This document shows, in pieces, positions 12,325 to 30,448 of a stretch of 64,000 nucleotides of DNA. Below the pieces are notes generated by a model. That model was not told where the DNA came from. It made no database searches and worked only from the letters and a program-made list of their open reading frames with translations. Both the position numbers and the translations under genes were made by a program. Source of the DNA: an uncultured Pseudomonadota bacterium (GTDB lineage: Bacteria; Pseudomonadota; Alphaproteobacteria; Acetobacterales; Acetobacteraceae); assembly GCA_963840545.1 (NCBI GenBank), contig CAWIZE010000006.1, positions 315,682-379,681 on the forward strand, read 5' to 3'. Each line of letters opens with the position of its first letter. The first letter of the stretch is position 1.

Positions 12325-12386
12325 ACCCCAGCCGCCGCCCGCCCCGCGCGCGACCGGCGCCGGAACAGCCCCGGCCAATGTCCGCC

Positions 12387-12785
12387 TCAAGCGGCCTTGG
12401 TTGCGATGAAACGCGATAGAGCCGAGCGCATATCCGAAAAGAGAGCCGCCCCGAAAATACCCGTGCCACGATAATAATAAGTGGCTCCTGAATCCGAATC
12501 GACGACGGCCGACAAATGCGATCGCCGCCATTTCTGGCGGGGCTTTGCCATGGCAAAGGCGATCAACGCTTGGTCCGGGTTTTTTGTCACCACGACCGGA
12601 ATGGTCATGTAGCCACCCAGCCATAATGACGAAAAAGGCAGCTGCTTCCGCTTGCTGTAATATTCTCCTGCAGCCAGCAAATTGGCCAAATCGTCGGCCT
12701 CCGCGTTCTCAACCTCGGAGACCACAAGAGTCTGCGAGATGATGCTTATCGCCTTCCAGGCCACATAGAGTCCGCGATGCCACAA
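12387..12785 (-). CDS. hypothetical protein (AT-richer, no recognisable family)
   Basis: 132-aa ORF with a TTG start in a locally lower-GC stretch. I recognise no motif. Confidence 0.4.
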   Translation of the reverse strand: MWHRGLYVAWKAISIISQTLVVSEVENAEADDLANLLAAGEYYSKRKQLPFSSLWLGGYMTIPVVVTKNPDQALIAFAMAKPRQKWRRSHLSAVVDSDSGATYYYRGTGIFGAALFSDMRSALSRFIATKAA

Positions 12786-12942
12786 TTTCCGGGGTGACCC
12801 TTACTGTTTTCCAGCCGGATCCCGTCTTGGAGCCCTCCGGATCTGCCTTGACGCGAACCGATATCTCGACATTCCGAGCGACGTCATAGTTTCCCCGGCG
12901 CAGGCGTTGATCGATGGCGGTGACAAGGGACGAACCGGTCAT
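12709..12942 (-). CDS. hypothetical short protein, overlapping and possibly once fused to the 12387..12785 ORF
   Basis: Internal Met MTGSSLVTAIDQRLRRGNYDV... The frame differs by one nucleotide from the downstream ORF and overlaps it by 77 nt. Confidence 0.3.
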   Translation of the reverse strand: MTGSSLVTAIDQRLRRGNYDVARNVEISVRVKADPEGSKTGSGWKTVRVTPEIVASRTLCGLEGDKHHLADSCGLRG

Positions 12943-13170
12943 AGAAGCGGTCTCCCGAACCGACGGCGACGCCGTCGACGTTCGGGGAACGCTACCCCCC
13001 GCTCCGCGCGCCCGGCAACCTCCGTCCTGCCTTTCCCCGATGGTTCGCGATTTCGTGTACCCTTGCGGCGATTCCGCCCGCCCGCTCACCAGGCCCCGGC
13101 GCTGCCCCACCTTGCGGACTCCCATCCGACCAAATATATACCCCAATCTATACACACCATCGAGAGCCCC

Positions 13171-13440
13171 ATGCCGGAAACCCGCAAGGCAAAGCTGTTC
13201 CGCAACGGCGCCAGCCAGGCCGTGCGCCTGCCGGCCGAGTTCCGCTTCGAGGGCAGCGAGGTCTACGCCACGCGTGACGAGCAGTCCGGGGACGTGACGC
13301 TCTCCACGCGCCCGGGCGCGCGCGCCTGGGGCGAGTTCTTCGCCCTCATGCGCACCATCGACGTGCCGGCGGACTTCATGTCCGAGCGTCCGATGAACGT
13401 CCCGCCCGAGGAGCGCGGGTTGTTCTCCGACGCCGGATGA
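13171..13440 (+). CDS. vapB: type II antitoxin, VapB (AbrB/SpoVT-fold)
   Basis: MPETRKAKLFRNGASQAVRLPAEFRF is the classic SpoVT/AbrB swapped-hairpin N-terminus. There is a 4-bp overlap with the downstream PIN gene. Confidence 0.85.
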   Translation: MPETRKAKLFRNGASQAVRLPAEFRFEGSEVYATRDEQSGDVTLSTRPGARAWGEFFALMRTIDVPADFMSERPMNVPPEERGLFSDAG

Positions 13441-13853
13441 CGGTGCCGCTCCATCTGCTGGATACCGACATCGCGAGCTTCGTCATCAAGGCCCGCTCGC
13501 CCGCGATCGAGGCGCGCCTCGCCGCCATTCCCCCGGACCGCGTCTGCCTCTCAGCCGTTACCCGTGCAGAACTGATGTACGGCCTCAAGCGGCTGGCGCC
13601 GTCGCATCGGCTGCATGTCGGCGTGCATCAATTCCTCAAGCTCGTCCACGCCCTCGCGTGGGATTCCGACGCCGCCGACTGCTATGCCGACATCCGCCAT
13701 CGCCTGACCACCACCGGCCAGCCGATCGGCGAGATGGCCATGATGATCGCCGCCCATGCGCTTTCCGCCGGCGCCGTTCTGCTCACCAGCAACACCCGTC
13801 ACTTCGCGCGCCTCACGCCACCGCTGGTGCTGCTGAACTGGAACGAAACCTAG
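13437..13853 (+). CDS. vapC: type II toxin, VapC (PIN domain)
   Basis: LLDTDI..., TRAELMYG, ...MIAAHA and LLTSNTRHF are PIN/VapC landmarks. Confidence 0.85.
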   Translation: MTVPLHLLDTDIASFVIKARSPAIEARLAAIPPDRVCLSAVTRAELMYGLKRLAPSHRLHVGVHQFLKLVHALAWDSDAADCYADIRHRLTTTGQPIGEMAMMIAAHALSAGAVLLTSNTRHFARLTPPLVLLNWNET

Positions 13854-14249
13854 CGCGGCCCTTCCGACCGAAGGCCGCGCGTCTCCGGCAGAGCTTGGGC
13901 CATTCACCGCACACCAGCGGCCGACGGCCGCTGGCTCGATCCGGTCAGGTCGCTGACGGATTGGACCGGATAGATCGTTGACAGGTCTGTTGCACGGCGA
14001 GAAGGGCCCCGCCGATGCCTTGGAGCGAGACCTGCGCGATGGACGAGCGGATGCGATTTACTGTTGCGGCGAGCGCGCGCTCGTCGGATCGGGGTGCCGC
14101 CCTCAATCCTCCATCCGTCGCAAGCCGCGCGAGCCGCCAACCGCCCAAGAGAGAGCGGCGCAGAGCGCAGGGTCCATCTTTCCCTCGCCCGCTCTCACGC
14201 CAAACCCGGTCCGCCGCCCCTGAGTGAGGCCTCGCCCTCGCCGCCGTGC

Positions 14250-14942
14250 TCAGGAGGGCACGGCGGCGAGGATCTCATCGGCACTGCCGATCGCCCGATC
14301 CATGCATCCGAGGAACCATCCGAGCCACGGCGTGATGTCGAGATCGCCCCGCTGCGTCGCTTCCAGCCTTTCATAATACGCGTCGCGCTCGCGACGGATC
14401 TGCGCCGACATGCTGTAGAACCGCTGGGAGCTCCGTTCGCTCTGCGCAAGCATCATGTCGGCGATCGCCCGCGCGATCCGCCCGTTGCCGTCGTCGAACG
14501 GATGAACCGTCACGAACCGGAGATGAGCCACCCCCGCCTTCAGCACCGGATCGATCGGCGGGGCGCCGTTGAACCAATCGAGAAACGCGCACATCTCCCG
14601 ATCGAGGCGCCCGGCTTCCGGAGCCTGGGAGTGGGCCCGCTCCCGCCCGACCGGCCCGGAAACGACCTGCATCGGCCCGGCGCGGTCGTCCCGCCATGCC
14701 CCCACCCTGCCGCCGCGCGCGGTCGGGGAAAGCGCGGCGTGCCAGTCGAACAGCCGCTCCGCGGTCAGCGTCTCCGCATATCCCTGGGTCGCGTCGAGCA
14801 TCATCTCGACCACGCCCTCCACGGTCCGGTCCGCCAGGGCGCCGATATCCATCCCGAGGCGGGCGATCGCGACGGCTCCGATAACCTGTTGATAACGCCT
14901 GGAGGGCGCCATTGGCGTCTTTTTATTGCAATTGGGCGCCAT
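14250..14942 (-). pseudogene. Fic/DOC-family protein, 5'-truncated (DUF4172-type N-terminus missing)
   Basis: Fic motif HPFDDGNGRIARA. Similarity to the long Fic family starts only at about RRYQQVIGAVAIARLGMD. The ORF start overlaps the promoter/start region of the divergent higB-like gene. Confidence 0.65.
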
Positions 14943-14948
14943 TGGCGT
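14904..14948 (+). promoter_or_regulatory. two direct copies of GGGCGCCATTGGCGT (each with the palindrome CGCCA-T-TGGCG), candidate operator/promoter of the higBA-like pair
   Basis: Copies at 14904-14918 and 14934-14948. TTGCAA-N16-TATATT spans the second copy, just upstream of ATG 14960. Confidence 0.45.
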
Positions 14949-14959
14949 ATATTCCGAGG

Positions 14960-15304
14960 ATGCCGAGCGTTCCTCTCGCCGTCATTGAGACGCCGCAATT
15001 TCTGCGGCAAGCCGAAGACGTATGGACGGAGGCCGAGCGGCAGGAATTCGTGGATTACATCGCCCGCAACCCGGAGGTGGGTGACTTAGTCCCGGAGACG
15101 GGTGGCGTTCGCAAGGTGCGCTGGCGCCGCCAGGGGACAGGCAAGCAGGGCGGGGTGCGGGTGATCTACTTTTATTACAACGCGGTGACGCCGCTGTTCC
15201 TGCTCATGGTCTACGCCAAGGCTGTGCGCGAGGATGTAGCGCCCGAGGCGAAAAAGGCGTTGGCGGAATTCGCGGCACGCATCAAGCGCGCCGTGCGTGG
15301 ATGA
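14960..15304 (+). CDS. RelE/HigB-like type II toxin
   Basis: GGVRKVRWRRQGTGKQGGVRVIYFYY....LFLLMVYAKAVREDV matches the HigB-2/RelE-like family pattern. The toxin-first gene order is HigBA-like. Confidence 0.7.
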   Translation: MPSVPLAVIETPQFLRQAEDVWTEAERQEFVDYIARNPEVGDLVPETGGVRKVRWRRQGTGKQGGVRVIYFYYNAVTPLFLLMVYAKAVREDVAPEAKKALAEFAARIKRAVRG

Positions 15305-15319
15305 GGCGAGGAGGGCGAG

Positions 15320-15610
15320 ATGAACAGGTTCAGCCGTGATCTGGTGCAGGGCATGGAGGAAGCCGCCGCCTTCGCGGAAGGCAAGAAGGCTGGCGCGCGC
15401 GTGCACGTCGTCGCAGTGCCCGACGTGCGCGCCATCCGGCAGCGGCTTCACATGTCGCAACAGCGCTTCGCCGAGACCTACCGCATTCCGCTTCCGACGC
15501 TGAAAAACTGGGAGCAGGGGCGCCGCGCACCGGACGCGCCTGCCGCTGCCTACCTGCAAGCCATCTCGCGCCAGCCGAAGGCCATCAAGGAGGCGCTACA
15601 GCATGGATGA
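15320..15610 (+). CDS. HTH (XRE-type) antitoxin partner
   Basis: VRAIRQRLHMSQQRFAETYRIPLPTLKNWEQGRRAPD is a typical XRE HTH. The gene starts 16 nt downstream of the toxin. Confidence 0.75.
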   Translation: MNRFSRDLVQGMEEAAAFAEGKKAGARVHVVAVPDVRAIRQRLHMSQQRFAETYRIPLPTLKNWEQGRRAPDAPAAAYLQAISRQPKAIKEALQHG

Positions 15611-16056
15611 TCGGCTGTGATGCGGCCAGCTAAGATACCCGTGCGGGTCGTGTCTCGCCGAGTGGTGTAGGAGCTGCGGGTCAGTGGCCCGCCGGAGCGA
15701 CCGCCGAGAGCCTGGCGGAGGCGGGCTGTCCAGCGACATCCGGAAGTCATCCCCCGGCGACACGAGGAACTGACCCCGGTGCGGCTTGCTGCCCGGCCAG
15801 CGGTGTTTCTCTGTTCGGCTGAGCGAGGCGGTTTCCCCATCCCGGCCTGGTCTGGGCAAGGCGTCGCGCGCAGCCGCGGTCAAGCATGGCCGAAGGCCAC
15901 CGGCGGAGCCGGCGCGCGGAGGCCGAGGGCATCACTCAGAAGCAGGTGATGACCCGAGCCCTCGCTGCGGCGGGGCTTCCGGTCGATCCGCCTGATCTGG
16001 AAGATCGGACACCGCGGCGGCGCAGAGCTCCCTGGCGATTTCAGCTTGCCCTACTA

Positions 16057-16071
16057 TATCACGGAGTGATA
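16057..16071. promoter_or_regulatory. palindrome TATCAC-GGA-GTGATA, candidate TA operator
   Basis: A perfect 6-bp inverted repeat ending 6 nt upstream of the GTG start at 16077. Confidence 0.35.
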
Positions 16072-16076
16072 GAAAC

Positions 16077-16448
16077 GTGCCCGTTCGCTTGCTGAAAGAC
16101 CCCGAGTTCGATCGCTGGGCGCGCAAGGTGGGCTTGATGGATCAGGCGCTTCGAGCCGCCGCGGACGAGATTGAGAAGGGCCTCATCGATGCCCGCCTGG
16201 GGGGTTCCCTGGTCAAGAAGCGGGTGGCGCGGCCTGGACGCGGCAAGAGAGGCGGATATCGAACGATCCTGGCGCACCGGCAGGGGGTGCGACTGATCTT
16301 CCTCCACGGCTTCGCCAAGAACGAGACGGACAATATCACCAAGAGGGAGCGCCTGGCGCTTCTGGCTCTTGGTGATGAGGTACATGGGCCATGCCGAGCA
16401 GGTCATCGACGAGCTGGTGGCCAAGCAATTGCTTATCGAGGTGTGTGA
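16077..16448 (+). CDS. RelE/ParE-superfamily toxin (COG4737-like), C-terminus possibly frameshifted
   Basis: F.RWA.K.GL.D..L....EIEKGLIDARLGGSLVKKRVARPGRGKRGGYRTILAHR....IFLHGFAKNETDNIT matches the family pattern. The stop overlaps the antitoxin ATG (GTGATGA). Confidence 0.7.
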   Translation: MPVRLLKDPEFDRWARKVGLMDQALRAAADEIEKGLIDARLGGSLVKKRVARPGRGKRGGYRTILAHRQGVRLIFLHGFAKNETDNITKRERLALLALGDEVHGPCRAGHRRAGGQAIAYRGV

Positions 16449-16750
16449 TGAGCCGGATCCTGAAGAACGTCCACGCATCGGCCAAGCGCCTGCATGATGC
16501 GGGATACATGGATGCAATCACCATGCGCGAGTTTGACGCGCTGTGTCTGCCACCGTTGCACGACTATTCCCCGGCGCAGGTGCGTCGCGTCCGCGAGCGG
16601 ACCAAGGCGAGCCAAGCCGTTTTCGCTGCCGTTCTGAACGTCGGCGCCACTACGGTCGCCGCGTGGGAACAGGGCACCAAGAAGCCGTCTGGCGCCGCCG
16701 TGAAGTTGCTCGATCTGGTGGAGCGCAAGGGGCTGGGAGCGCTCGCTTAA
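16448..16750 (+). CDS. HTH antitoxin (COG2944/NadS-like)
   Basis: TMREFDALCLPPLHDYSPAQVRRVRERTKASQAVFAAVLNVGATTVAAWEQGTKKPSGAAVKLLDLVERKG matches the family pattern. Confidence 0.8.
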   Translation: MSRILKNVHASAKRLHDAGYMDAITMREFDALCLPPLHDYSPAQVRRVRERTKASQAVFAAVLNVGATTVAAWEQGTKKPSGAAVKLLDLVERKGLGALA

Positions 16751-16868
16751 GCGGGCGGGAAAGGGAGTGGAGGGGGAGGAGCAGGGCCCAGAACTTGTCC
16801 CCTCGGGGATTTGCGCATCCCTGTTATTCTGGCTGTATGAACAAATCTTCCGCGAGCGCCTTGAGCGT

Positions 16869-17056
16869 GTCAATCGGCGCGCAAATTCGATCTCGTCCAG
16901 CGTAGGCCAAAATGCTCTGATATTGTGGGGTTTTCGAAAACCTCGAGGGGTCGGGAGCGGCGTCGAACGTCGAGCCCGGCGATCAGCCGATTCGTCGAAG
17001 ATCACCAACGCATTGGAGGTGCTTCGGGACGGGGTCGATTTTGGGCGCCGATTGAC
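16869..17056. mobile_element. MITE-like element, copy 1 (188 bp, ~30-bp terminal inverted repeats)
   Basis: Left end GTCAATCGGCGCGCAAATTCGATCTCGTCC. The right end reverse-complements to GTCAATCGGCGCCCAAAATCGACCCCGTCC. It is about 85% identical to the copy at 18735..18923. Confidence 0.75.
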
Positions 17057-17212
17057 AGTCAATGCAATCTCGGGCCAACCGGCCTATGCGGGAAGCTGAG
17101 CGGCAGCTCCGGCTTCACGGTCTGGGCGCTCAAGCAGGGCAAGCCTCACCCGATGCGCTGCGCTGCGATCGCCGAGGCGGCCCGGCTCTGCATCCGGGCC
17201 TGACGGCTCGGC

Positions 17213-17662
17213 CTATCGCGGGGCATGCGCCTGGCGGCCGCGGGCCGGCGCGGTCGTGTCCTGGCGGGCCCTGAGAACGGCTAGGGCAGCAGGATCGTGG
17301 TCGAGCAGAGCAAGTGCGCTGCCAACGGCTCGGCTCGGAAGCAGGTCGCCCGTCTCGTATTTCTGAAAGGCGCGCGGGCCGCCACCGATCAATTGCCCGG
17401 CCTGCTCCTGGGTCAGGCGGAGCTTCTTGCGGATGCGGCGAATCTCTGCCGGATCGAGGAGACCTTCGGTCCGCGCCTTTAGCCGGTTAAGCGCCCGATC
17501 GGATAGCTTCATGTCCGCGCCGGTGTGGATGCTCTCTTCGGACGCATCGCAATACCAGCCCGGCATCTGGAAGGTGATGCTTTCGCCCTTGTAGGTCAGC
17601 GTCATCGGGCGCTCGTCCCGGTGCATTGGCGCTCCCGTTGCGGGGCAAACGGGATCAGTCAT
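17213..17662 (-). CDS. mqsA: type II antitoxin MqsA (zinc-ribbon-like N-terminus plus HTH)
   Basis: EIRRIRKKLRLTQEQAGQLIGGGPRAFQKYETGDLLPSRAV forms the HTH. The N-terminal ribbon retains only 2 of the 4 usual Cys. It overlaps the mqsR stop by 8 nt. Confidence 0.85.
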   Translation of the reverse strand: MTDPVCPATGAPMHRDERPMTLTYKGESITFQMPGWYCDASEESIHTGADMKLSDRALNRLKARTEGLLDPAEIRRIRKKLRLTQEQAGQLIGGGPRAFQKYETGDLLPSRAVGSALALLDHDPAALAVLRARQDTTAPARGRQAHAPR

Positions 17663-17972
17663 CGTCTTTCTCCTTGAACGACGATAGCAAAAATTCCCTC
17701 ACCGCATCGGCGGTGAATTTGACGTAGAGCAGGCCGGCAGGCGACGGCACGTGATGCACGTCCTGGCAGATGCGATGATCGGCATACGCTGTCATCGACT
17801 TATGGAAGTGCGGCCGTTGCATGAGCTGGATGGTCGCGACCATCTCGGCCCGGCCGAAGCCGAGTGCGGCAGCGCCCCTGATGGCGGCGCCTGTAGCGTG
17901 GAGTTTGTCCACGCTGTCGAACGCCCCTTTGAAGGCGTCGAGGTCATAGGTCGGCTTGCGCTTCCCCGTCAC
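17655..17972 (-). CDS. mqsR: type II toxin MqsR (mRNA interferase)
   Basis: FHKSMTAYADHRICQDVHHVP...LYVKFT.....LLSSFKEK aligns with E. coli MqsR (FYKSMTTYSDHTIWQDVY...LYLKIT...IVSFKEK). Confidence 0.88.
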   Translation of the reverse strand: MTGKRKPTYDLDAFKGAFDSVDKLHATGAAIRGAAALGFGRAEMVATIQLMQRPHFHKSMTAYADHRICQDVHHVPSPAGLLYVKFTADAVREFLLSSFKEKDDD

Positions 17973-17980
17973 CCAAGTAT

Positions 17981-18023
17981 ATTACACCATTATGGTGTAA
18001 TGTCAAGGCGCACCTTGATGGTG
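17981..18023. promoter_or_regulatory. two CACC-N5-GGTG palindromes upstream of mqsR, candidate MqsA operators
   Basis: ATTACACCAT-T-ATGGTGTAAT (17981-18001) is a perfect 10-bp-arm palindrome. A second CACCTTGATGGTG lies at 18011-18023. Both sit in the mqsR 5' region. Confidence 0.6.
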
Positions 18024-18165
18024 TATTCCGGCCTTAGAGACCGCCATACGCGCGGTAACCAATATCTTGCGTAGAGTTCGTATAGGCCGTATCATGGATT
18101 TACCGGTCTTACCAAGGATACGGACATGAGCCCTTCTGTCGAGCTCTCCCCAGACATTCGCCCGC

Positions 18166-18687
18166 TTGCAGGCACATGCGGTGCCGCTGGTGGACAATAT
18201 CGAGACCGTCATAAACAGGATGGTCGATTTCTATGAGAGCAGAGACGGGGCACCCGTCGCGGCATCCAAGAACGGCGACCACGAAAAGGTCCGTCAGTTC
18301 AATCCGGCAACGCCTCCGGACCTGACGCACACGAAGGTTCTGTCGATCGAGTTCTGCGGCAGGCTATTCGACCGCAGCCAGACGAACTGGAACGGCCTGC
18401 TCAATGCCGCGATCCGTGAGGCAAAGGGGCGCGCAAAGACGGCGAAGGACCTGAAGTCCCTAATCTCCATCCCCTTTGTGGACGGACAAAAAACCGATGA
18501 AGGCTATCGCTACCTTGCCGACATCGGAATCTCGGTTCAGGGTCAGGACGCCAACGGAGCGTGGCGGGCAGTCTATCACATTGCCCAGCAGATCGGCGAG
18601 CGGGTGCTCGCTACGTTCGTCTGGCGCGAGAAAGAGGGTGCTGCGTTCCCCGGCGTGACGGGCCGCTTCTCGATGTCGGGGCGTTGA
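18166..18687 (+). CDS. hypothetical protein (173 aa, no recognised family)
   Basis: ORF with a TTG start, divergent from mqsRA, between the two MITE copies. No motif recognised. Confidence 0.45.
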   Translation: MQAHAVPLVDNIETVINRMVDFYESRDGAPVAASKNGDHEKVRQFNPATPPDLTHTKVLSIEFCGRLFDRSQTNWNGLLNAAIREAKGRAKTAKDLKSLISIPFVDGQKTDEGYRYLADIGISVQGQDANGAWRAVYHIAQQIGERVLATFVWREKEGAAFPGVTGRFSMSGR

Positions 18688-18734
18688 TATCGGGGCGCGC
18701 GGGGCTTCCCCGGCGTCGATCAGGCGGCGGGCGC

Positions 18735-18923
18735 GTCAATCGGCGCCCAAATTTGATCCCGTCCAGCATAGGCCAAAATGTTCTGATACTGCGGGGTTTT
18801 TCGGAAACCCCGAGGGGTCGCGAGCGGCGCCGAACGTTGACCCTGCTGATCAGCCAATTCCTCGAAGATTACCAACGCATTGGAGGTGGTTCGGGACGGG
18901 GTCAACTTTGGGCGCCGATTGAC
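18735..18923. mobile_element. MITE-like element, copy 2 (189 bp)
   Basis: Ends GTCAATCGGCGCCCAAATTTGATCCCGTCC and GGACGGGGTCAACTTTGGGCGCCGATTGAC (27 of 30 TIR match). Same orientation as copy 1. Confidence 0.75.
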
Positions 18924-19225
18924 AGGCGGGGACCACGGCGCAGTTCCGGGGATCCCTCCGATCCCCCGGTGCCCAGCGGCGCTGCGCCACACCCCACCCC
19001 ACGCCTCGCCCGCTCGCGTCCCACCCCGCGCGCCGCCTTCCTTCCCCCCTCCCGCACATTTCCGGGTGAGCCCCGCTCGCGTTCGCTCGCCTGGCACCGC
19101 CTTCCTTCCCCTCGCCCGCATTTGGCGGGACAGGGTGGCGAGCGGAGCGAGCCGGGTGAGGGCGCCGCCCACCACCACGCCATCACACGGAGGGCGGCCC
19201 TGGAGTCGCGAGCCACCCCATGCTA

Positions 19226-19239
19226 GGTTACATGTAACC
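19226..19239. promoter_or_regulatory. perfect 14-bp palindrome GGTTACATGTAACC, candidate mazEF operator
   Basis: Read directly; it ends 14 nt upstream of the mazE-like ATG at 19254. Confidence 0.45.
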
Positions 19240-19253
19240 GCAAGAGGCGACCC

Positions 19254-19490
19254 ATGCCGGCACCAACCCCTGCCAAGCCGTCGCGCGATAAGGTGCGCGC
19301 CCATCGCGACCGCTTGCGCCGCCATGGCCTCCGCCCGATCCAGATCTGGGTTCCGGACGTGCGGTCACCCTCCTTCAAGGCCGAAGCCCACCGCCAGGCT
19401 CTGGCCGTTGCGAGGAGCGGGCACGCCAAGGAGGACCAGGACTTCATCGATGCCGTTTCCGAACTCGGCCACCCCTCCGACGCGGAATGA
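19254..19490 (+). CDS. mazE: MazE-family antitoxin (DUF3018-like)
   Basis: KVRAHRDRLRRHGLRPIQIWVPDVRSPSFKAEAHRQ is typical of DUF3018/MazE-like antitoxins. There is a 4-bp overlap with the toxin. Confidence 0.8.
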   Translation: MPAPTPAKPSRDKVRAHRDRLRRHGLRPIQIWVPDVRSPSFKAEAHRQALAVARSGHAKEDQDFIDAVSELGHPSDAE

Positions 19491-19831
19491 AGCGCGGCGA
19501 AATCTGGACAGTGGCCGCGGGCCAAGGATACGCGGGCAAGCCGCGGCCCGCCGTGATCCTGCAGGATGATCGGTTCGACGCCACGGACTCGGTCACGCTC
19601 TGCATCGTCACCACCGACCCCACCGACGCGCCTTTGTTCCGTCTGTCGATCGCCCCGAATGAAACGAACGGCCTCCGCGCCCAATGTCGCCTGATGGTCA
19701 ACAAGATCACGACCGTCCCCAAGGCAAGGATCGGCGCTCGCATCGGGCGCCTCAACGACGAGGACGTCGTACACCTCAACCGCGCGGTTATCGTCTTTCT
19801 CGGAATGGCGGGCGCCAACGCCGATGCCTGA
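19487..19831 (+). CDS. mazF: MazF/PemK-family endoribonuclease toxin
   Basis: MKRGEIW.V....GYAGKPRPAVILQDD.......VTLCIVTT is typical of MazF/PemK. Confidence 0.85.
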   Translation: MKRGEIWTVAAGQGYAGKPRPAVILQDDRFDATDSVTLCIVTTDPTDAPLFRLSIAPNETNGLRAQCRLMVNKITTVPKARIGARIGRLNDEDVVHLNRAVIVFLGMAGANADA

Positions 19832-19965
19832 CGAAGGACGAAACATCGCATCCGGCCCGGTGCTTCACCGACCGGCAGCAATAACAGAGATTGCGCAATT
19901 CTTGGCATCACCCTAAATAAGCCACCTGCGGGGCCTACCCGCGCGCGAAGGAGGGCAGGGCGGGC

Positions 19966-20211
19966 GTGAACGTGTCGATCGGCAATCGGTGGGAGAAATT
20001 CGTCGAGCACGCCGTGAAAAGCGGCCGCTACGGCTCCGCGAGCGAGGTCGTCCGTGAGGGGCTCCGCCTCGTCGAAGAGCGCGAGGCGAGGCTCCGCGCG
20101 CTCAAGGAAACTTTGAGCGCCTCAATCGCCGAGGGCGGCAGCTCCACCGACGATGACGTCGCCGCCGCGATCGCGGCCAAGGCCGCCGAGCTCGCCGCAC
20201 AGGGACTCTGA
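19966..20211 (+). CDS. parD: ParD-family (RHH) antitoxin, orphan (no parE downstream)
   Basis: VSIGNRWEKFVEHAVKSGRYGSASEVVREGLRLVEEREARLRALKETL is the ParD signature. GTG start. Confidence 0.8.
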   Translation: MNVSIGNRWEKFVEHAVKSGRYGSASEVVREGLRLVEEREARLRALKETLSASIAEGGSSTDDDVAAAIAAKAAELAAQGL

Positions 20212-20541
20212 GCGCCGCGTCTGCCACGCCCCAGCCAAGCATCGGGGCTCCGAGCCGCCCGGTGGACGATTACCGTCCAGGGTCGGCCACCTGAAAGTTA
20301 GAGCCACCGAGCGCGGGTAAGCCCAAACAGGATCTCTCCCCGGCTCCTTCCATCACGTCAAAGCAGACGCAGGCTTGCGATTTGAACTTGGCGTCGCGCT
20401 CGTGGCACACCCGCTAAGGTGTTCCCAATACAGCGACTTCCTTGCTTGGAGCAACGCACCCGTCTACCCTCCAACTCGAGGAAACCTGACCAAGCGTTCG
20501 GATCAGACCGGCTGCCAGAGACGGAAGGCAAGTAGCGGGAG

Positions 20542-21939
20542 ATGGACGTCGGGTATGGCCCTGAAGCGGAACGCACGCGCCATCTAGCCGAACTCACGCG
20601 CGGTTGGGGTGCGTGGAGCTCAATTTCGCTCTACCTCGACCGGTGTCAGGTCGACACGCCGGACGAACTCGTTAAGGCCACCTGGAGGCACGTTCAGCAG
20701 CTGAGAGACCAAGTTGGAAAGGTGGTAGACTTCGGAGCGGGGGACGGGCGTTTTGCACGCCACGGCCAGTACTCGGAATACCTCGGGTACGAGATCGACC
20801 GCCACCGCTGCTCCGGCGTCGCCCTCCCGAAAAACGCGACCCTGCTAAACCGCTGCGCCTTCTCAGACGAGATCGTCGACGCAGATCTCTCCATCGGCAA
20901 CCCCCCCTTTGTCCGTAACCAGGATCTGCCCGACGGCTGGCGGCAGAAGGCCTCGACCACGCTACTCCGGAGGACAGGAGTGGCAGTCTCGGGCCTCGCA
21001 AACGCGTGGCAGTACTTTTTCCTGCTATCCCTGGCCAGCCTCAAGCCGAATGGGCTGTGCGCACTGGTCATTCCGTACGAATGGGTGTCGCGTCCTTCGG
21101 CCAGGGAGCTACGCAGCTACCTAATAGAACAACGCTGGAATGTCAGCGTATACCGCCTCGTGGATACGACCTTCAACAGCGTGCTTACGACCTCCTCCGT
21201 TACGATCGTTGATAAGGCCCGGCGCGACGGGAGTTGGCTATATTTCGAGGAGAGAAAATCCGGTGCCTACAGGCCGCTGCAGTCGGCCAGCGGCGCAGCC
21301 GACGGCGTAATGCATTATTTGCGGCGTTCCGAGGTCGATCGCAACAGACCACACGCGATCCGCGGTTTGAGCCCTGGAACGCAGAAGGTACTCACCCTCA
21401 CCGAGGGTGAGCGGGTTCGGTTTGGCCTCCAAACCGACCGAGACGTGGTCCCATGTATCACCACACTGCGCCACCTTCCCGGGAATGTGAAAGAGCTCAA
21501 TGAAACCAACTTTCGGAAATTCTACCGCACGCCCGGCCAAAAGTGCTGGCTGATTAGAACCGACATTAAGCCGAGCCGGACACTCCAAGGGTACCTCAAC
21601 GTCGTGCCCGAAGGCGACTATCAGACCAGCACCTGCCTTGAGCGCGACGAGTGGTGGAAATTCAACATGCCACGCGTTCCCCCGCTGCTTATGGCGATGA
21701 GCTTCAAAGGGGAGTTCCCAAAGGCCGTGCGAAACAAGATCTCCGCTCGCGCGGTCGGTGGAGTGTGCGGAATATACAATCTCACCAAAGCCCAAGCTAC
21801 GCGACTAACGTCCGGGCTCGACGGCCTGGACATCCGCCCCCGCATCGTCGCCCACTCAAACGGGCTGCGAAAGATCGAAATCAACCAGCTCAACGCCCTA
21901 CTCGTCGAGGCGCTTCTCCGCGACCCGATCGCAGACTGA
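20542..21939 (+). CDS. N6-adenine DNA methyltransferase (gamma-type, Eco57I-like), no nuclease domain
   Basis: Motif I VVDFGAGDGRF (20722-20754). Motif IV GNPPF (NPPF at 20899-20910). The ~230-aa C-terminal half has no recognisable nuclease motif and is probably a target-recognition domain. Confidence 0.85.
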   Translation: MDVGYGPEAERTRHLAELTRGWGAWSSISLYLDRCQVDTPDELVKATWRHVQQLRDQVGKVVDFGAGDGRFARHGQYSEYLGYEIDRHRCSGVALPKNATLLNRCAFSDEIVDADLSIGNPPFVRNQDLPDGWRQKASTTLLRRTGVAVSGLANAWQYFFLLSLASLKPNGLCALVIPYEWVSRPSARELRSYLIEQRWNVSVYRLVDTTFNSVLTTSSVTIVDKARRDGSWLYFEERKSGAYRPLQSASGAADGVMHYLRRSEVDRNRPHAIRGLSPGTQKVLTLTEGERVRFGLQTDRDVVPCITTLRHLPGNVKELNETNFRKFYRTPGQKCWLIRTDIKPSRTLQGYLNVVPEGDYQTSTCLERDEWWKFNMPRVPPLLMAMSFKGEFPKAVRNKISARAVGGVCGIYNLTKAQATRLTSGLDGLDIRPRIVAHSNGLRKIEINQLNALLVEALLRDPIAD

Positions 21940-21948
21940 AGGCGAACC

Positions 21949-24204
21949 GTGACAGTCCATCATATCCTCGATAAGGGCACACTGACGTTCAGCATCGAAA
22001 GTCGAATACTTCGCGAACTTGGCGAGCGCCTCGTCAAGCAACCGGAGGTAGCCATCGTCGAATTGGTCAAGAACGCTTACGACGCGGACGCCACCGAATG
22101 CACTATCAGCTACGACCCGGGCAACGCGATCACGGTCAAGGACGACGGGCTCGGCATGACGCTCGCGCGCTTCACTGACGGTTGGATGCGCGTCGGCACA
22201 CGCTCGAAAGAAGCAGTGGGCCTTAGCGACAAGTTTGGTCGTCTTATCACTGGCGAGAAGGGCATCGGCCGCTTTGCGGTCCGATTCCTAGGGCGGGCCC
22301 TCCACCTTGAGTCGGTTGCTGACGACCGCGGCCGAGAACGGCGTACCCGCCTAATCACCGATTTCGACTGGCAGTTATTTGACCAGCACGAGGACCTCGG
22401 CGAAGTACGAGTGCCGTACCGGCTGGAGCGTGCCAACGCAGACACCCCGATCGGCACGACGCTCGCTATTACACGACTGCGACCCGAAATTGCGCGGCTC
22501 GACCTACGAAAGGTGCGAACGGGGTCAATTGGCGTGCTCACGCCGCTGCGATCGTTATTCCGCCGAACGCCGGGCACCGATGCGGCGGATCCCCCGAAAC
22601 GAGCGGACCAACCGGACCCCGGATTCACCCTGGAAATCCAAGAAGGCGAAGGCGAAGCTCCGCAGGACGTCGCGGGCGCGATCCTTGAGGGGTTCGTATT
22701 GCGTGCGCGCCTCCAGCTGAGCGGCGACCGGGTCGATCTTCAGGTCTATCGGCGCGACGAACAGAAGCCGTATTTAGCCGTCGTCGATACCTACCACAAC
22801 CAACTCGGGAAGCTGTACACAGACATCCGGTTCTTTCCACGCAGGAAGGGGGCGTTCTCGGAAATGCCGATCGACGGTCGGCAGGTGTCCACATGGATCG
22901 CCGCCAACTCCGGCATCGCGGTCTTTGACCGTGGATTCCAAGTTCAGCCCTACGGCACACCGTCTGATGATTGGCTACGACTGGCCGCGGACAATGCGCG
23001 CAACGAGCGCGCCCCTCGCTCCGATATCGCCAAGAAGCACTTCCCGATGCCTCCACAGGTCCGGGCGTCGACCTCGGAGAATTGGATGCTACGTCTCCCG
23101 CAGTCAGCCCAACTTGTCGGACTTGTCCAAGTGGAGGGCCGGCGGGCCAATGAGCGCGGAGCAGGCGAAGACGACGAGGGGCTTATCGCTTCGGCCGATC
23201 GAGAAGGGTTTGTAGAAAACAATGCCTTCTCTCAACTCCGAGACTTGGTCCGTGGGGCAGTCGAAACGATTGCGTACGCCGACCGGCGTCTCCAACAGGA
23301 ACACGAACAGACAGCGCGTGACGCGCTTGTCAAATCCATCCGCCGAGAGGCGCAGCTAGCAATCAGCGAAGTTCAATCCAACCGCAATATTGCAGCGCCA
23401 GACAAGGCGAGAATTGTTGCGGCGTTGGCCCAGACCCAACAGCTGGCTGAGCGACAGGAGGAGGTCGCCCGGGAGCGCGAACGGCAGCTAGAAATCATGA
23501 GTCTTCTTGGGGTCGTTGCCGGCTTTATGACGCACGAGTTTGGCATCGCATTGCAGGAGCTGGAGACAACGCACGCTGACCTGCTCGTACTTGCAAAAAC
23601 CCAGCCGAAGTTTATCTCGGTTGAGCAAAGAGTCTCTGACCACATCAAGAGCCTGCGCGAGTTCGTCACCTACTCGTCGGCCTACATCCAAGGCACTCGG
23701 AGCAAGCCAACGACGCCCTACCCTGTCAAACCGAGAATACTGCAAGTGAAGCGCATCTTCGGAAGATACGCCGAAGAGCGAAAAATCGAGGTGGAAATTA
23801 ACACCGAACCCGATCTGATGGCGCCGCCCGTTCCAGTTTCGCTCTACAACGGGATAGCTCTCAACCTTTACACCAATGCCCTCAAAGCGGTGACAGCCAA
23901 AACTGGCACTGGTCCCCGAATGATCGCGTTCCGCGCGTGGAACGACAATCGCTGGCATCACCTCGAGGTGTCCGACACAGGTATCGGCATTCCAACGGCA
24001 CTTCGAAGTCGTGTGTTCGATCCACTATTTACGACAACCAACTCCCGACGCGATCCGCTCGGTTCAGGGATGGGGTTAGGCTTGGCCCTAGTGAAACGAG
24101 GCGCCGAAGCGTTTGGCGGCCGCGCCGAGCTTGTCGCCCCACCACCTGACTTCGCAACCTGCGTGCAAGTCCGCTTACCACTGGACGTCGAGGGTGTCCG
24201 CTGA
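21949..24204 (+). CDS. GHKL (MORC/MutL-type, HATPase_c_3-like) ATPase fused to a histidine-kinase core (H-box plus HATPase_c), cytoplasmic
   Basis: N-terminal Bergerat motifs: ELVKNAYDA (22060-22083), DDGLGM (22141-22158), GEKGIGRF (22252-22275). A coiled-coil-like middle region follows. H-box GFMTHEFG (His529 at 23533-23535). C-terminal N, G1, F and G2 boxes: NLYTNALKA, DTGIGI, VFDPLFTT, GSGMGLGL. No TM segment. GTG start. Confidence 0.85.
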   Translation: MTVHHILDKGTLTFSIESRILRELGERLVKQPEVAIVELVKNAYDADATECTISYDPGNAITVKDDGLGMTLARFTDGWMRVGTRSKEAVGLSDKFGRLITGEKGIGRFAVRFLGRALHLESVADDRGRERRTRLITDFDWQLFDQHEDLGEVRVPYRLERANADTPIGTTLAITRLRPEIARLDLRKVRTGSIGVLTPLRSLFRRTPGTDAADPPKRADQPDPGFTLEIQEGEGEAPQDVAGAILEGFVLRARLQLSGDRVDLQVYRRDEQKPYLAVVDTYHNQLGKLYTDIRFFPRRKGAFSEMPIDGRQVSTWIAANSGIAVFDRGFQVQPYGTPSDDWLRLAADNARNERAPRSDIAKKHFPMPPQVRASTSENWMLRLPQSAQLVGLVQVEGRRANERGAGEDDEGLIASADREGFVENNAFSQLRDLVRGAVETIAYADRRLQQEHEQTARDALVKSIRREAQLAISEVQSNRNIAAPDKARIVAALAQTQQLAERQEEVARERERQLEIMSLLGVVAGFMTHEFGIALQELETTHADLLVLAKTQPKFISVEQRVSDHIKSLREFVTYSSAYIQGTRSKPTTPYPVKPRILQVKRIFGRYAEERKIEVEINTEPDLMAPPVPVSLYNGIALNLYTNALKAVTAKTGTGPRMIAFRAWNDNRWHHLEVSDTGIGIPTALRSRVFDPLFTTTNSRRDPLGSGMGLGLALVKRGAEAFGGRAELVAPPPDFATCVQVRLPLDVEGVR

Positions 24205-24932
24205 TGGCCGAACGAAAACCATCGATCCTCCTGATCGACGACAGAGAAGACCTGTTGGGGGACATGCGGGACCAGCTATCAGCGCTCGTGCCAACGGAAG
24301 AGGCAGAGATTAGGATTTGGGTTCCAAGCGACGCCGCCAAGAGCCCCCTAGAGTCCTTCGGAAGCAAGATTGACGATGAAACAATTCTGGTCGTCACGGA
24401 CTATGACCTCACCGGCAGAGGCGTAACCGGCCTATTCGGGGCCACCATAGTGAGCTGGTGCCAATCGCGCGCATTGCCGGTCGGAGACTTCTCGCGGGCC
24501 AACACGGCCTCGATCCCAAAGGAACCGAATCTTTTCGAACTTCGGGTGCCGACGGTCCCGGAGGAGGCAGCGCAGTTCACTGCTTCGGCCTTTCGAGGTT
24601 TCAAGCGGTTCCGCGACCTCATCGTCGCCAACGAAGGCACGTCGTCTGCGAAGGGCAGCCCGGCAGCCGCACTCGCGTCACTCCTTGGTCGCCCGCACTT
24701 GGAGAGCCAATTTACGCTCTACATGTCCCGACTTGGGTCCGCGAACTCGTCGCTGTTCGACCGTCTTCGGAATTCTGTCTCTCCTGAGGAGGCCCCGGAG
24801 AAAGACAAAAAGGCGCGGCTTCTCGCGTACGTTCTTGGGCACGTTCTGCTGAACGCTGTCCTGAAGTACCCGGACCGATCCTTTCAATACAGGCTCTCTG
24901 TGCTTACGTCGCCACGGTGCCGGCCGAGATAG
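24204..24932 (+). CDS. receiver (REC)-like domain protein, terminated by a TAG that is in frame with the next ORF
   Basis: SILLIDD (Asp12/13) and ILVVTDYDL (Asp66 at 24399-24401) resemble receiver acidic-pocket and phospho-acceptor positions. The start overlaps the upstream stop (TGATG). Confidence 0.6.
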   Translation: MAERKPSILLIDDREDLLGDMRDQLSALVPTEEAEIRIWVPSDAAKSPLESFGSKIDDETILVVTDYDLTGRGVTGLFGATIVSWCQSRALPVGDFSRANTASIPKEPNLFELRVPTVPEEAAQFTASAFRGFKRFRDLIVANEGTSSAKGSPAAALASLLGRPHLESQFTLYMSRLGSANSSLFDRLRNSVSPEEAPEKDKKARLLAYVLGHVLLNAVLKYPDRSFQYRLSVLTSPRCRPR

Positions 24933-25307
24933 GTGCCATCGCCCCATTGTTCGCTGAGGCTAAGTACCGATGGGCCGTTCTCCGAGCAAGGAAGGTACTT
25001 TTGGCGCGAGGACGTCGATGACGCACTCGACACGATGGCAGCCTCGCTTGCAGATGAGGGGTTCGAGGAATTTGGAGATTTTAACAGAAAAGCCGTGGAG
25101 ATTAAGCTTGGTCGATCGCTGGCCACCCACGAATGCACACGTTGCGGAGGCCGAAAGGGCGGCTTTCTTTGCCCTTTTACACAAAGGCCAGTCTGCCAAC
25201 GCCCAGACTGCTCGGTGCCCGCAAGCGGCTGGATCCCTGAGGGCGCGCAGCTATGCCGTGTGGAGCGCGGATTCTATGACGAATGGGCTCCCTTACTTGG
25301 CCTCTGA
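24933..25307 (+). CDS. Cys-rich ORF in the same frame as 24204..24932 (continuation or separate GTG-start gene)
   Basis: It begins at the codon immediately after TAG 24930-24932. It contains CTRCGG....CPF.....CQRPDC......C, a zinc-ribbon-like pattern. Confidence 0.45.
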   Translation: MPSPHCSLRLSTDGPFSEQGRYFWREDVDDALDTMAASLADEGFEEFGDFNRKAVEIKLGRSLATHECTRCGGRKGGFLCPFTQRPVCQRPDCSVPASGWIPEGAQLCRVERGFYDEWAPLLGL

Positions 25308-25323
25308 CGACTGACCCGCGATT

Positions 25324-26110
25324 ATGACTGGAGAGGCGCGGCGCTTGCTGAGGGAGCTACAGACCGCCTGGACGGGCGTACGGGCCGGAATGGCAAGAAT
25401 GTACGGCGCGAGCTCGGTAGAGCCAAAGGACTATCTGCAAATCTTCAAGGTCGAAGACGAAGAATGTGGCCAAATCAAGCTGGACGTCAGCCCAGTGGTG
25501 CTCAACGTTCCCGAGCGAGCAGGCAGTGGTTCCCTTGACCTCTACGTTGCCATCGCGGGATGGCTGTTGTTTGCTACGCGGAGGAACCAGGGCGACCCGA
25601 TCAGGACAGAGCGCTTTGGGACGAAGATTGGATATTTTCGTGCGAAGCGTGCGACACTTCAGCATGTTTATGGCGCGCATTACGACATCGAGGAAACGGC
25701 TCCGGGGCACCCCGTTTTTCACGGGCAAATTGCACCGCAGATGGAGTTCAGCAGCGATGTCCTCAACCTTTTTCATCGAGGCGGGGAACCCGAGAATCTC
25801 GTCAAACCGATCCTGAGGAACGTACCGTGTCCCGACCGCGCAGATGGATGTGTTCTCAGTGATCACCCAGGTTTGCGCAGACCACCTTATGTCGGCAGAC
25901 TCTGCCGCGGAGGTGCGGGAGGCCTTCAACTCGCTCCGAAAAGCCTGCGACTTTTTCACAGGCGCTGCAAATCGGCTAACGTACCTGAACAGCGGACCCG
26001 CAATATCCTGCTACCGGTCAACCCACTGGTACTCGGCACCACCGCCAGGCAGCGCCGCCGCCCGCGCGCAGCAAGGTAACGCACCCGCGCAGCCATTGTG
26101 CAAGTACTAA
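25324..26110 (+). pseudogene. unknown protein, apparently frameshifted (frame of 25324 switches to frame of 25844)
   Basis: After about 25817 the first frame becomes Arg-rich junk. The next frame, which has a stop at 25814-25816, continues with protein-like PTAQMDVFSVITQVCADHLMSADSAAEVREAFNSLRKACDFF up to 26110. Confidence 0.5.
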
Positions 26111-26315
26111 TGAAAAACCACGGGCGACGCTGCGCGATCGGCGAAGGCCTTCAGGTTGGGCGCGGCGACGGCGCCAAGGGCTCGCCTCCTGAGGGCCGGC
26201 GCAGCGCCCGAGGCCCTTCACAGCGAGGATCTGCCAGCGCGGAGCGCGGACGAGCAGCCGATCCTCGGCCACCGCGACCCATTTTGCCCCGCCCGCCCGC
26301 CTGAGGAGTACCCTC

Positions 26316-26576
26316 ATGACCAACGCCCAAGCCCTGATCGATAAGATCAAAACCCTGCCGCCCGAGCGGTTGGGCGAGGTCGAGGATTTCGTGGACTTTA
26401 TCGCCGCGAAATCGCGGCGGCTCGCCGCATTGGACCGGCTGCTCGCAATCGCCCCCGCGCTGGAAGCGGCCGGTGCGCCGCCGATCACGGAAGACGAGAT
26501 TCAGGCCGAAGTCGACGCCGTCCGCGCCGTCCGCGCCGCCCGGCAAATCCGAGGCGGCGGCGCGGATCGTCCTTGA
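26316..26576 (+). CDS. antitoxin-like protein (DUF2281-like N-terminus)
   Basis: ALIDKIKTLPPERLGEVEDFVDFI is typical of DUF2281-type antitoxins paired with PIN toxins. Confidence 0.6.
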   Translation: MTNAQALIDKIKTLPPERLGEVEDFVDFIAAKSRRLAALDRLLAIAPALEAAGAPPITEDEIQAEVDAVRAVRAARQIRGGGADRP

Positions 26577-26826
26577 CACCAATGTCGCCCTCTCCGCCCC
26601 GCTCCGGCGTGGCACGCCCTATCGGCTCCTCGACACCATCCGGCATCGGGAACAGATGCAGCTCTTCACGAGCATCGTGCTGCTGGAGGAATTGGCCGAG
26701 GTTCTGATCAGGCCAGCGTCATCGAAGCGCCTTGCCATCATCGGCCTCACCGCCAGCCAGATGCTCGCCGATTACGTCAATTCCGTCGATCTGGTGGCGC
26801 CGCTCGCGGTCCCCGCCACCCAATAA
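26563..26826 (+). pseudogene. PIN-domain (PIN_3-like) toxin remnant, no nearby start codon and 3'-truncated
   Basis: RIVLDTNVALSA.......LLD.......LFTS..LLEELAEVL matches the N-terminal two thirds of the family. The ORF ends before the expected RD..D and TGD acidic motifs. Confidence 0.5.
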
Positions 26827-26901
26827 AGGCTCCTTCCGCCCCGATGGCCCCGCCCGCCCGCCCGCGATATCCTCCCGCCGCCCGCCCGAGGAGTCGCCGC
26901 C

Positions 26902-29546: not shown

Positions 29547-30448
29547 CGCAACGGATCAACCGCGCGATCGAGCTGCTCGATGCCGGCCAGGCAATATACT
29601 ACACCGGGGCCCATTCGGGCCATGCCCTGACCTGCGCCCAGGGCCGCGAGGATGCGAAAACCTGGGCCGATTACATCAATATCGGCATGGAGCACGGCGC
29701 TTTCGACATGGCCGGCCTTGCCGAGTACATCCGCGGCCTGCTCGAGGCCGGCCCGACCCGCTCCGGCCACCGCACCCCCGCCGTCATCGTCGAGGCGCCC
29801 GTGAACGGCGTGGACGAGGCCTCGGTCCGCGTCAATGCCTGGCAATTCCGTCAGATTCTCGCCCGCGGCGTGCACGGAATCGTGCTTTGCCAGGCCGAAC
29901 GGGCGGATTCGGTCCAGGCTTTCGTAGCCAGTTGCCGGTTTTCACACCATAAAATGCCCCCCGGTACGCCCACTCTGCCCACTTTGGCCACCCTCGCCAC
30001 CGGCACCCGCGGCCGCGGCTCGGAAGCAACCGCCGCTCCTGTCTGGGGCCTTGATTCCGAAGACTATATTCGCCGCGCCGATCCCTGGCCCCTCGATCCG
30101 GCGGGCGAGCTCCTCCTCGGCGTGAAAATCGAATCGCCCGCCGCCGTCGCCCGCTGCGAAGAGATCCTTGCAGTACCCGGCTTGGGTTTCGCCGAGCTCG
30201 GCCCCGGCGATCTGAGCCTTTCTCTCGGCTATGTCGCCATGCCGCGCGAGCCCTATCCGCCCGCGATGCAGGCGGCGCGCGAGCGCGTCTTCGCCGCCGC
30301 GCGGGCCAACAACCTTGCTTTTCTCGAGGCTTGCACGCCGGAAACCATCGCCGCCCGGCTCGACGAAGGGGTGCGTGTCATCGCCGGCGGAAGCGAGGAA
30401 ACCGCGCGCATCGGCCGCCGCCACCAGGGCCGCCGCATGGCGGTTTGA
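29543..30448 (+). CDS. HpcH/HpaI aldolase/citrate-lyase family protein
   Basis: Family-like segments IGMEHGAFD, GVKIESPAAV and ELGPGDLSLSLG. ATGA overlap with pobA. Confidence 0.65.
   Translation: MTQRINRAIELLDAGQAIYYTGAHSGHALTCAQGREDAKTWADYINIGMEHGAFDMAGLAEYIRGLLEAGPTRSGHRTPAVIVEAPVNGVDEASVRVNAWQFRQILARGVHGIVLCQAERADSVQAFVASCRFSHHKMPPGTPTLPTLATLATGTRGRGSEATAAPVWGLDSEDYIRRADPWPLDPAGELLLGVKIESPAAVARCEEILAVPGLGFAELGPGDLSLSLGYVAMPREPYPPAMQAARERVFAAARANNLAFLEACTPETIAARLDEGVRVIAGGSEETARIGRRHQGRRMAV

Follow-up and report, generated by a model that had tools for sequence, protein, structure and literature searches.

A toxin-antitoxin and defence island in the place of a dehydrogenase gene between a sugar permease gene and fumC of an uncultured Acetobacteraceae bacterium

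Location and borders of the island

The window analysed here is a 64,000-nt stretch of DNA (contig CAWIZE010000006.1, positions 315,682 to 379,681 of the forward strand; GenBank assembly GCA_963840545.1) from an uncultured Pseudomonadota bacterium of the family Acetobacteraceae, and our subject is an island of toxin-antitoxin (TA) and defence-related genes that lies between the last permease gene of a sugar ATP-binding cassette (ABC) operon and fumC. A reading made earlier from the letters alone (the sequence-only reading) had described the interval 12325-26901 as containing nothing of a housekeeping nature and had placed it between two genes. The interval agrees with the borders that we found by blastn, at 12327 and 26852-26860. 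The placement has to be changed, because the island does not lie between two genes but takes the place of one, encoding a Zn-dependent dehydrogenase (ADH). The closest matches to the window are uncultured Acetobacteraceae-like metagenome-assembled genomes (MAGs), and the genomes compared by blastn were the three closest, L001, L002 and L064 (DNA identity 82-88%, permease identity 89-97%), which are 92% identical to one another and form a single clade; L001 and L002 show 89% permease identity, and L064 is a metagenome contig. All three have the gene order substrate-binding protein-permease-permease-ADH-fumC-pobA and no island, and their permease-fumC interval is occupied by a single 322-aa ADH gene, the ATG of which overlaps the permease stop codon.

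At the left junction (12325-12330), homology to the relatives stops at 12327, which is 3 nt past the permease stop codon and within codon 2 of their ADH gene. At the right junction (26852-26860), homology restarts ∼45 nt upstream of the fumC ATG (26902) and ∼25 nt past the ADH stop codon of the relatives. These breakpoints define the replaced segment as running from the second ADH codon to a point ∼25 nt beyond the ADH stop, and no remnant of ADH was found at the island edges. Further, an ADH gene directly follows the permease gene in five more distant relatives (L003, L010, L050, L051 and L061), making eight genomes in all with 65-97% permease identity; because this arrangement extends to the distant relatives, the ADH state is ancestral. 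Thus, window 12328 to ∼26855 is a lineage-specific accessory island, for which ADH has been swapped out almost base for base. Synteny with L001 extends on both flanks except for two single-gene differences outside the island, both genes being present only in the window: a major facilitator superfamily (MFS) transporter gene (∼7765-9000, reverse strand) and an HpcH/HpaI aldolase gene (29543-30448, forward strand). Exact-protein look-ups with FumC, the permease, VapC and MqsR returned no match.

The island also differs from its surroundings in composition. The GC content of the window is ∼0.70, and between 12 and 27 kb it falls to 0.58-0.68, with a minimum over 21-26 kb. The GC content at third codon positions (GC3) is 0.64-0.82 in the island genes, compared with 0.87-0.93 in the flanking core genes; by module, it is 0.88 for parD, 0.82 for the Fic gene and 0.65-0.73 for the four genes of a methyltransferase cassette described below. 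Because the three genus-level relatives have permease-ADH-fumC-pobA without the island, and because the composition is not host-like, the data support an accessory island, as the sequence-only reading had proposed.

No integrase, transposase or tRNA gene lies at either edge, again as noted from the sequence earlier: the island is flanked by LysR, MFS and ABC genes on its left side and by fumC, pobA and an aldolase gene on its right, and the family scans detected no recombinase domain in the island. The only tRNA genes of the window are at 168-242 and 6134-6210, the nearer one 6 kb away behind syntenic genes, and the sole transposase belongs to an IS3 element at 49.5-50.7 kb. No direct repeat was found at the junctions, no Rfam RNA family within the island, and nothing in a promoter and terminator scan of 26000-27000.

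Toxin-antitoxin modules and remnants

Scans of the island proteins against Pfam, NCBIfam and PADLOC recovered every module that had been listed from the sequence: vapBC, a Fic gene, a higBA-like pair, a COG4737/COG2944-like pair, mqsRA, mazEF, an orphan parD, the methyltransferase cassette and a DUF2281-like antitoxin gene with a cut PIN gene. The island thus holds five type II TA pairs and three decayed remnants, namely the Fic pseudogene, the orphan parD and the DUF2281-like gene with the cut PIN gene. Genes are on the forward strand unless stated otherwise. The left-most open reading frame (ORF) or ORFs (12387-13155, reverse strand) have low GC3, no family match and no tblastn match among plasmids; in two Illumina-derived contigs 1 nt is missing at 12772, so that two frames merge into one ORF of at least 184 aa. 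The vapB antitoxin gene follows (13171-13440; AbrB/MazE fold, PF04014), and its stop is overlapped by 4 nt by the start of the vapC PIN toxin gene (13437-13853; PF01850). One of the AT-richer ORFs described earlier as unassignable, that at 18166-18687, encodes a SepA-family protein (NF047386, E 1.7e-52).

The Fic gene (14148-14942, reverse strand) retains the motif HPFDDGNGR. Its description as 5'-truncated was correct but incomplete: residues 73-331 of a full-length 372-aa homologue from a Methylocystis plasmid align to 14891-14148 in a single frame, straight through an in-frame stop at 14250-14252, and therefore the 5' end is absent, the frame is interrupted and the 3' end has been lost as well. 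The gene thus does not encode the full-length Fic protein by which SoFic-type defence genes are recognised. The 5' break of this remnant is the place where the next toxin gene starts, that of a RelE-like protein with a weak match to PF06296 (14960-15304), which precedes its helix-turn-helix (HTH) antitoxin gene (15320-15610; NadS family, MqsA-type HTH) in the higBA order. A second RelE-like toxin gene (16077-16497), with a strong match to PF06296, is paired with another HTH antitoxin gene (16391-16750; MqsA-type HTH, COG2944-like); compared with an Illumina contig it has 1 extra nt at 16379, and read-through at this position yields a canonical 140-aa protein.

Next come the mqsA antitoxin gene (17213-17662) and mqsR toxin gene (17655-17972), both on the reverse strand and identified by the family scans (PF15731 for MqsA and PF15723 for MqsR), the SepA-family gene, and the genes for a MazE-like antitoxin (19254-19490; PF11455) and a PemK/MazF toxin (19487-19831; PF02452). 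In VapBC, MqsRA and MazEF, cognate toxin and antitoxin families adjoin each other at full length. The orphan ParD antitoxin gene (19966-20211) lacks a ParE partner and is followed directly by the cassette; no ORF or Pfam-detectable remnant of ParE is present in 20211-20542, the ∼330 nt before the methyltransferase gene. Pfam scans of stop-masked translations of three gaps (20205-20600, 13850-14260 and 15605-16080) likewise gave no ParE or other remnant, with the limit that the Fic 3' remnant escaped this kind of scan and was revealed only with a full-length homologue. At the right end, a DUF2281-like antitoxin gene (26316-26576; E 1.9e-5, its 25.6 bits being just below the Pfam cut-off of 26.5) adjoins a 3'-truncated PIN toxin gene (26566-26826), which covers positions 1-67 of the 115-position TIGR00305 profile and is cut 25 nt ahead of the point where homology to the relatives restarts. 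The sequence-only reading had remarked that modules abut each other at truncated genes, and three such joints are now defined: between the Fic remnant and the next toxin gene, between parD without parE and the cassette, and at the right border with its cut PIN gene.

Compared with the classical type II TA families, the island shares the family matches, the protein sizes, the gene order and the overlapping stop and start codons, and differs in that parD lacks parE, one PIN gene is cut and one RelE-like toxin gene has a 3' frameshift. Judging by the known behaviour of these families, the TA pairs would put a cost on losing the segment, and they may also cause phage infection to abort.

The two miniature inverted-repeat transposable element (MITE) copies reported from the sequence are also present, as MITE-like elements. 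Copies A (16865-17058) and B (18731-18925) are 194-195 nt long, 88% identical and in the same orientation, with terminal inverted repeats (TIRs) of ∼30 nt, and they bracket mqsRA and the SepA-family gene. A TIR pattern had 4 matches against 0 expected, and copy B folds as one long hairpin (z -6.3). The TIRs show no relation to the IS3 element of the window, and blastn of the MITE-like repeats against plasmids gave no match.

A conserved four-gene methyltransferase cassette

The methyltransferase cassette (20542-26110) is a conserved, mobile four-gene unit of ∼5.5 kb. Gene 1 (20542-21939) is intact and encodes an Eco57I-type N6-adenine DNA methyltransferase with GAGDG and NPPF motifs (Pfam Eco57I/N6_Mtase). 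Gene 2 (21949-24204), likewise intact, encodes a 751-aa protein with an N-terminal paraMORC-like GHKL ATPase of the MORC type, an H-box and a C-terminal HATPase_c histidine kinase; HATPase_c_3 and HATPase_c were located at residues 32-127 and 636-746, and residues 13-188 match the BbrUII/HgiDII restriction enzyme family NF050001 (E 1.8e-20) and the PADLOC REase_II models. The protein retains every residue that is invariant in 28 homologues, among them the N, G1 and G2 boxes in each of its two ATPase domains, and the H-box T528-H529-E530-F531 is itself invariant across these homologues.

Gene 3 (24204-25307), which carries two 1-nt indels, encodes a protein with a receiver (REC)-like domain containing D12, D13 and D66, a helical domain and a Cys-rich ribbon. 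In an AlphaFold model (pLDDT 87) its N-terminal domain is flavodoxin-like, and the best specific Foldseek matches are the receivers RcsB (probability 0.99) and NarL. Further, D12, D13 and D66, invariant in an alignment of 40 sequences, align with D12, D13 and D57 of CheY, although the comparison of profiles as such does not reach significance. The helical domain and the Cys-rich ribbon gave no match, and no winged HTH (wHTH) was detected by Pfam or by Foldseek, the latter being a whole-chain search with no domain-wise search made. Gene 4 (25324-26110), the frame of which is shifted, encodes a His/Asp-rich protein of ∼245 aa for which neither a family nor a fold relative is known: Pfam gave no match at E <= 10, and Foldseek gave none that was usable in PDB or BFVD (model pLDDT 81). 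It has many invariant His and Asp residues, with the motifs HVYGAHYD, GHPVFH, AQMD, ADH and HWY, and its family comprises 434 clusters at 50% identity. Two of the four cassette proteins are thus without family annotation.

We then compared the cassette with its homologues in other genomes. Gene 2 homologues with 60-75% identity occur in Sphingomonas, Bradyrhizobium, Ciceribacter, Brevundimonas and one Actinomycetota MAG. The four-gene order is constant in every context read, with protein lengths of 449-465 aa for the methyltransferase, 737-758 aa for the kinase, 364-373 aa for the gene 3 product and 241-252 aa for the gene 4 product. The cassette was seen in at least six unrelated contexts, with different neighbours each time, and these include two chromosomes (Sphingomonas and Bradyrhizobium), a P2-like prophage, a locus similar to integrative and conjugative elements (ICEs) next to a MobA/TraI relaxase gene, and a Paraburkholderia plasmid. 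The nearest intact copy (L093, 5422-10957; 75% kinase identity) sits in the tail-gene cluster of the P2-like prophage, between the baseplate/tail-fibre genes and the gene for tail protein S. The copy on the Paraburkholderia plasmid NZ_AP023177.1 (L096, 4337-9969) is a distant five-gene variant with 25-43% identity; its extra small HTH gene overlaps the start of the methyltransferase gene, and it adjoins an integrase gene and a parDE pair. A conserved small ORF or regulator upstream of the methyltransferase gene is absent from five window-type loci and present only in this variant. The orphan ParD was considered as a dedicated regulator of the cassette and rejected, as it is missing from every other cassette locus. 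A 596-aa protein (P0365) that had appeared to be a fusion of genes 3 and 4 was likewise set aside, because the C terminus of gene 3 appears to be out of frame in it, which probably reflects a frameshift or gene-calling artefact.

Relation of the cassette to known systems and its possible working

Judged by its domains and gene order, the cassette fits best as a variant, so far uncharacterised, within the class formed by Ambrosia and the HEF_HK modules. Ambrosia (AbrR/A/B/C/D), for which anti-phage activity was demonstrated experimentally in Pseudomonas aeruginosa, consists of an XRE regulator, an N6-adenine methyltransferase, a HATPase/kinase, a REC-wHTH protein and an HNH endonuclease (2025 preprint, bioRxiv 10.1101/2025.09.30.679545). 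The two share the order N6-adenine methyltransferase, HATPase/histidine kinase, REC protein and fourth gene, mix parts resembling restriction-modification (R-M) and two-component systems, and occur on mobile elements. They differ in several respects: gene 4 is not an HNH endonuclease by the searches given above, in contrast to the type IV HNH protein AbrD; the HipB-like XRE regulator AbrR has no counterpart in the window cassette; and the REC protein of Ambrosia has a wHTH, which was not detectable in gene 3. Further, Ambrosia is found in Pseudomonadales, whereas window-type cassettes are found in Alphaproteobacteria, Betaproteobacteria and Actinomycetota.

The second group, described by Bellieny-Rabelo et al. 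2021 (PMC8011034), comprises soluble HATPase_c_3 + HEF_HK + HATPase_c kinases that adjoin divergent REC-like proteins as well as R-M genes, in most cases those of C5 methylases. The cassette shares with these HEF_HK/Response_reg_2 modules the 'group 1' architecture (HATPase_c_3, H-E-F H-box and HATPase_c), a soluble kinase, an adjoining divergent REC-like protein without other known domains and a neighbouring DNA methyltransferase. In contrast, its methyltransferase is of the Eco57I-type N6-adenine kind instead of C5-cytosine, it adds a conserved fourth gene of unknown fold, and neither PF19191 nor PF19192 matched the window kinase or three gene 3 proteins at E <= 10. With paraMORC/BbrUII-HgiDII GHKL restriction enzymes, gene 2 has the N-terminal GHKL ATPase in common, but it lacks a nuclease domain and its C-terminal half is a histidine kinase.

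From domain content and gene order, from which all steps below are drawn, the cassette is predicted to act as a signal-gated, R-M-like system. The N6-adenine methyltransferase would mark DNA. The paraMORC-histidine kinase fusion would sense a cue related to DNA or infection and autophosphorylate on H529, the phosphate would pass to D66 of the REC-like protein, and the latter would turn on a response through its own helical/Zn-ribbon part or through the adjoining His/Asp-rich protein, a candidate metal-dependent hydrolase. We suggest, tentatively and without claiming that the balance of probability favours it, that the cassette may be a distinct and widespread defence system, in which the paraMORC-kinase fusion would phosphorylate a REC/Zn-ribbon protein that turns on a new family of His/Asp-rich effectors, alongside an N6-adenine methyltransferase.

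A somewhat doubtful but possible alternative is that the cassette works as Ambrosia does, the kinase/REC pair controlling only the transcription of R-M-like genes upon infection, with gene 4 or another gene providing the nuclease and no effector being activated directly after translation. Consistent with this alternative, reporter genes of the Ambrosia cluster are induced on infection and the D60A substitution in its REC protein abolishes defence (bioRxiv 10.1101/2025.09.30.679545), and the upstream HTH gene of the Paraburkholderia variant, in overlapping the methyltransferase start, resembles a C-protein gene. What speaks against it is that neither Pfam nor Foldseek showed a wHTH in gene 3, the output part of which consists of the helical domain and the Cys-rich ribbon, along with the lack of a conserved upstream regulator in window-type cassettes and of an HNH domain. 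If the cassette is a working defence system, it would widen the newly described class in which R-M-like enzymes are linked to two-component signalling, and would contribute a new fold among effectors.

Independent sightings and single-base discrepancies

The island was seen independently in two kinds of data. One independent contig (L042; ENA ERZ25039540 contig_47819) matches window 17891-26853, being near-identical up to ∼23400 and noisy at the level of single reads over its last 3.5 kb, and Illumina-derived contigs from four soil metagenome runs (X1-X4) match much of the island at 99-100%. The right end of L042 falls at window 26853, precisely the right border of the island; given its noisy tail, this may be a coincidence or a branch of the assembly graph.

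To match intact homologues, gene 3 would have to gain 1 nt near 24871 and, in compensation, lose 1 nt at 24967, the shifted frame between the two running into a stop at 24930, and gene 4 would have to lose 1 nt near 25826, where the window has a 1-nt insertion. Compared with the Illumina-derived contigs, the window needs -1 nt at 12772, 16379, 20334 and 20516 and +CC at 18147, whereas 20 kb of core DNA compared with the same runs gave ∼80 substitutions and no indel. All four coding frameshifts are at GTAC sites (four of the 27 in the island), the gene 3 and gene 4 indels being among those linked to GTAC, and three of the four are the same event, a duplication of the terminal C of GTAC; two other discrepancies are at GANTC or CTGCAG-type sites. 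L042 agrees with the Illumina data at several sites and has both gene 3 corrections, but these fall in its noisy part, and reads of runs X1-X6, X8 and X9 did not cover the gene 3 and gene 4 indel sites. Overall, the pattern resembles consensus error tied to methylation motifs, although the indels could be real strain-specific decay. The GTAC-linked discrepancies might mark a motif modified by the cassette methyltransferase or by another one in the genome.

Origin of the island

The truncations at the module joints and the spread of GC3 indicate several separate insertion and deletion events, and the same spread together with the autonomous dissemination of the cassette indicates several acquisitions. 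We consider it probable that the ADH gene of the sugar-uptake operon was replaced by a mosaic of selfish and defensive modules, including the cassette, acquired stepwise. Recombination between core genes or beside them, without a site-specific recombinase, is the most likely route by which the segment arrived and was reshaped, and each new module may have deleted part of its neighbour. The sequence-only reading had suggested repeated in situ replacement instead of one mobile element; the plurality of acquisitions is upheld by the GC3 spread, the truncations and the spread of the cassette, and the replacements may have taken place in situ or in a donor.

Several observations weigh against the stepwise replacement reading. 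Cargo at the site is known from one lineage only (the window, L042 and reads in X1-X4), and with a single cargo state stepwise acquisition in situ is not separable from the import of a ready-made mosaic. No independent read or contig from runs X1-X4 or L042 spans either junction. The 1-nt indels in genes 3 and 4, at the 3' end of the second RelE-like toxin gene and in the left-most ORF mean that some of the island may no longer function in this strain, unless the consensus is wrong. The lack of a fold relative makes the effector role of gene 4 a guess. Finally, the MITE-like copies have no clear target-site duplication in their flanks and no partner transposase was found for them in the window.

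The principal alternative is that the island is the decayed remnant of one mobile element, such as a plasmid, ICE or prophage fragment, that arrived with all modules and later lost its integrase and ends. The cargo lends this some appeal: parD, pemK, vapBC and Fic genes are typical of plasmids and ICEs, Fic homologues were found on 283 plasmids, cassette homologues reside in one prophage, one ICE-like element and one plasmid, and no other cargo variant is known at the site. Nevertheless, the scans of the 14.5 kb found neither genes nor remnants of conjugation, replication, phage or recombinase functions, megablast of the island against 72,556 plasmids gave no match, GC3 ranges from 0.65 to 0.88 between modules, and the cassette has different neighbours in each of the other genomes, all of which make a single element unlikely.

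We also considered whether the linkage of island and flanks is a chimera of assembly or binning, as L042 ends exactly at 26853 and the short-read contigs stop at 12331 and span neither junction. Against this, the contig containing the window is 391 kb long and syntenic with L001 on both sides of the island, there is no junction repeat to mislead an assembler, the L042 tail is noise at the level of single reads, and the depth in run X2 is ∼5-9x for the core compared with a patchy ∼1-7x for the island; a chimera is thus very improbable. Least likely of all, and barely credible, is that the region is ancestral and that in the relatives it was lost, with ADH taking its place, which would draw on there being only three close relatives from one clade with 92% mutual identity but runs counter to the eight genomes with 65-97% permease identity in which ADH follows the permease gene, to an island GC3 far from that of the host and to the PIN gene cut at the border.

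The replacement of ADH by a mosaic of modules resembles what is seen in integrase-less islands at core-gene 'hotspots', with which the window island has in common accessory cargo among core genes, absence from relatives, deviant composition, a high density of TA and defence genes and remnants of earlier cargo. It differs from them in replacing a core-operon gene instead of occupying an intergenic spacer and in having one known cargo state. The island itself is an ordinary integrase-less TA/defence island, notable for the clean exchange of a gene for an island: it is a textbook case of such genes piling up between core genes without a recombinase, with unusually clean breakpoints at which one operon gene gave way to 14.5 kb. 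The part of some interest is the cassette, which is compact and mobile and contains two unannotated protein families.

Other features of the window

The IS3-family element (49486-50717) consists of orfA with an HTH_Tnp_1 domain and orfB with an rve domain, and includes an ALIL frameshift pseudoknot (RNA motif at 49770-49886). It adjoins a heavy-metal P-type ATPase gene (46980-49388) within a second tract of lower GC content at ∼45-52 kb. Near the left end of the window, the ORF at 396-1994 contains a tandem array with a 15-nt period at 585-665, the units of which resemble GCGGCCAACACGGGT.

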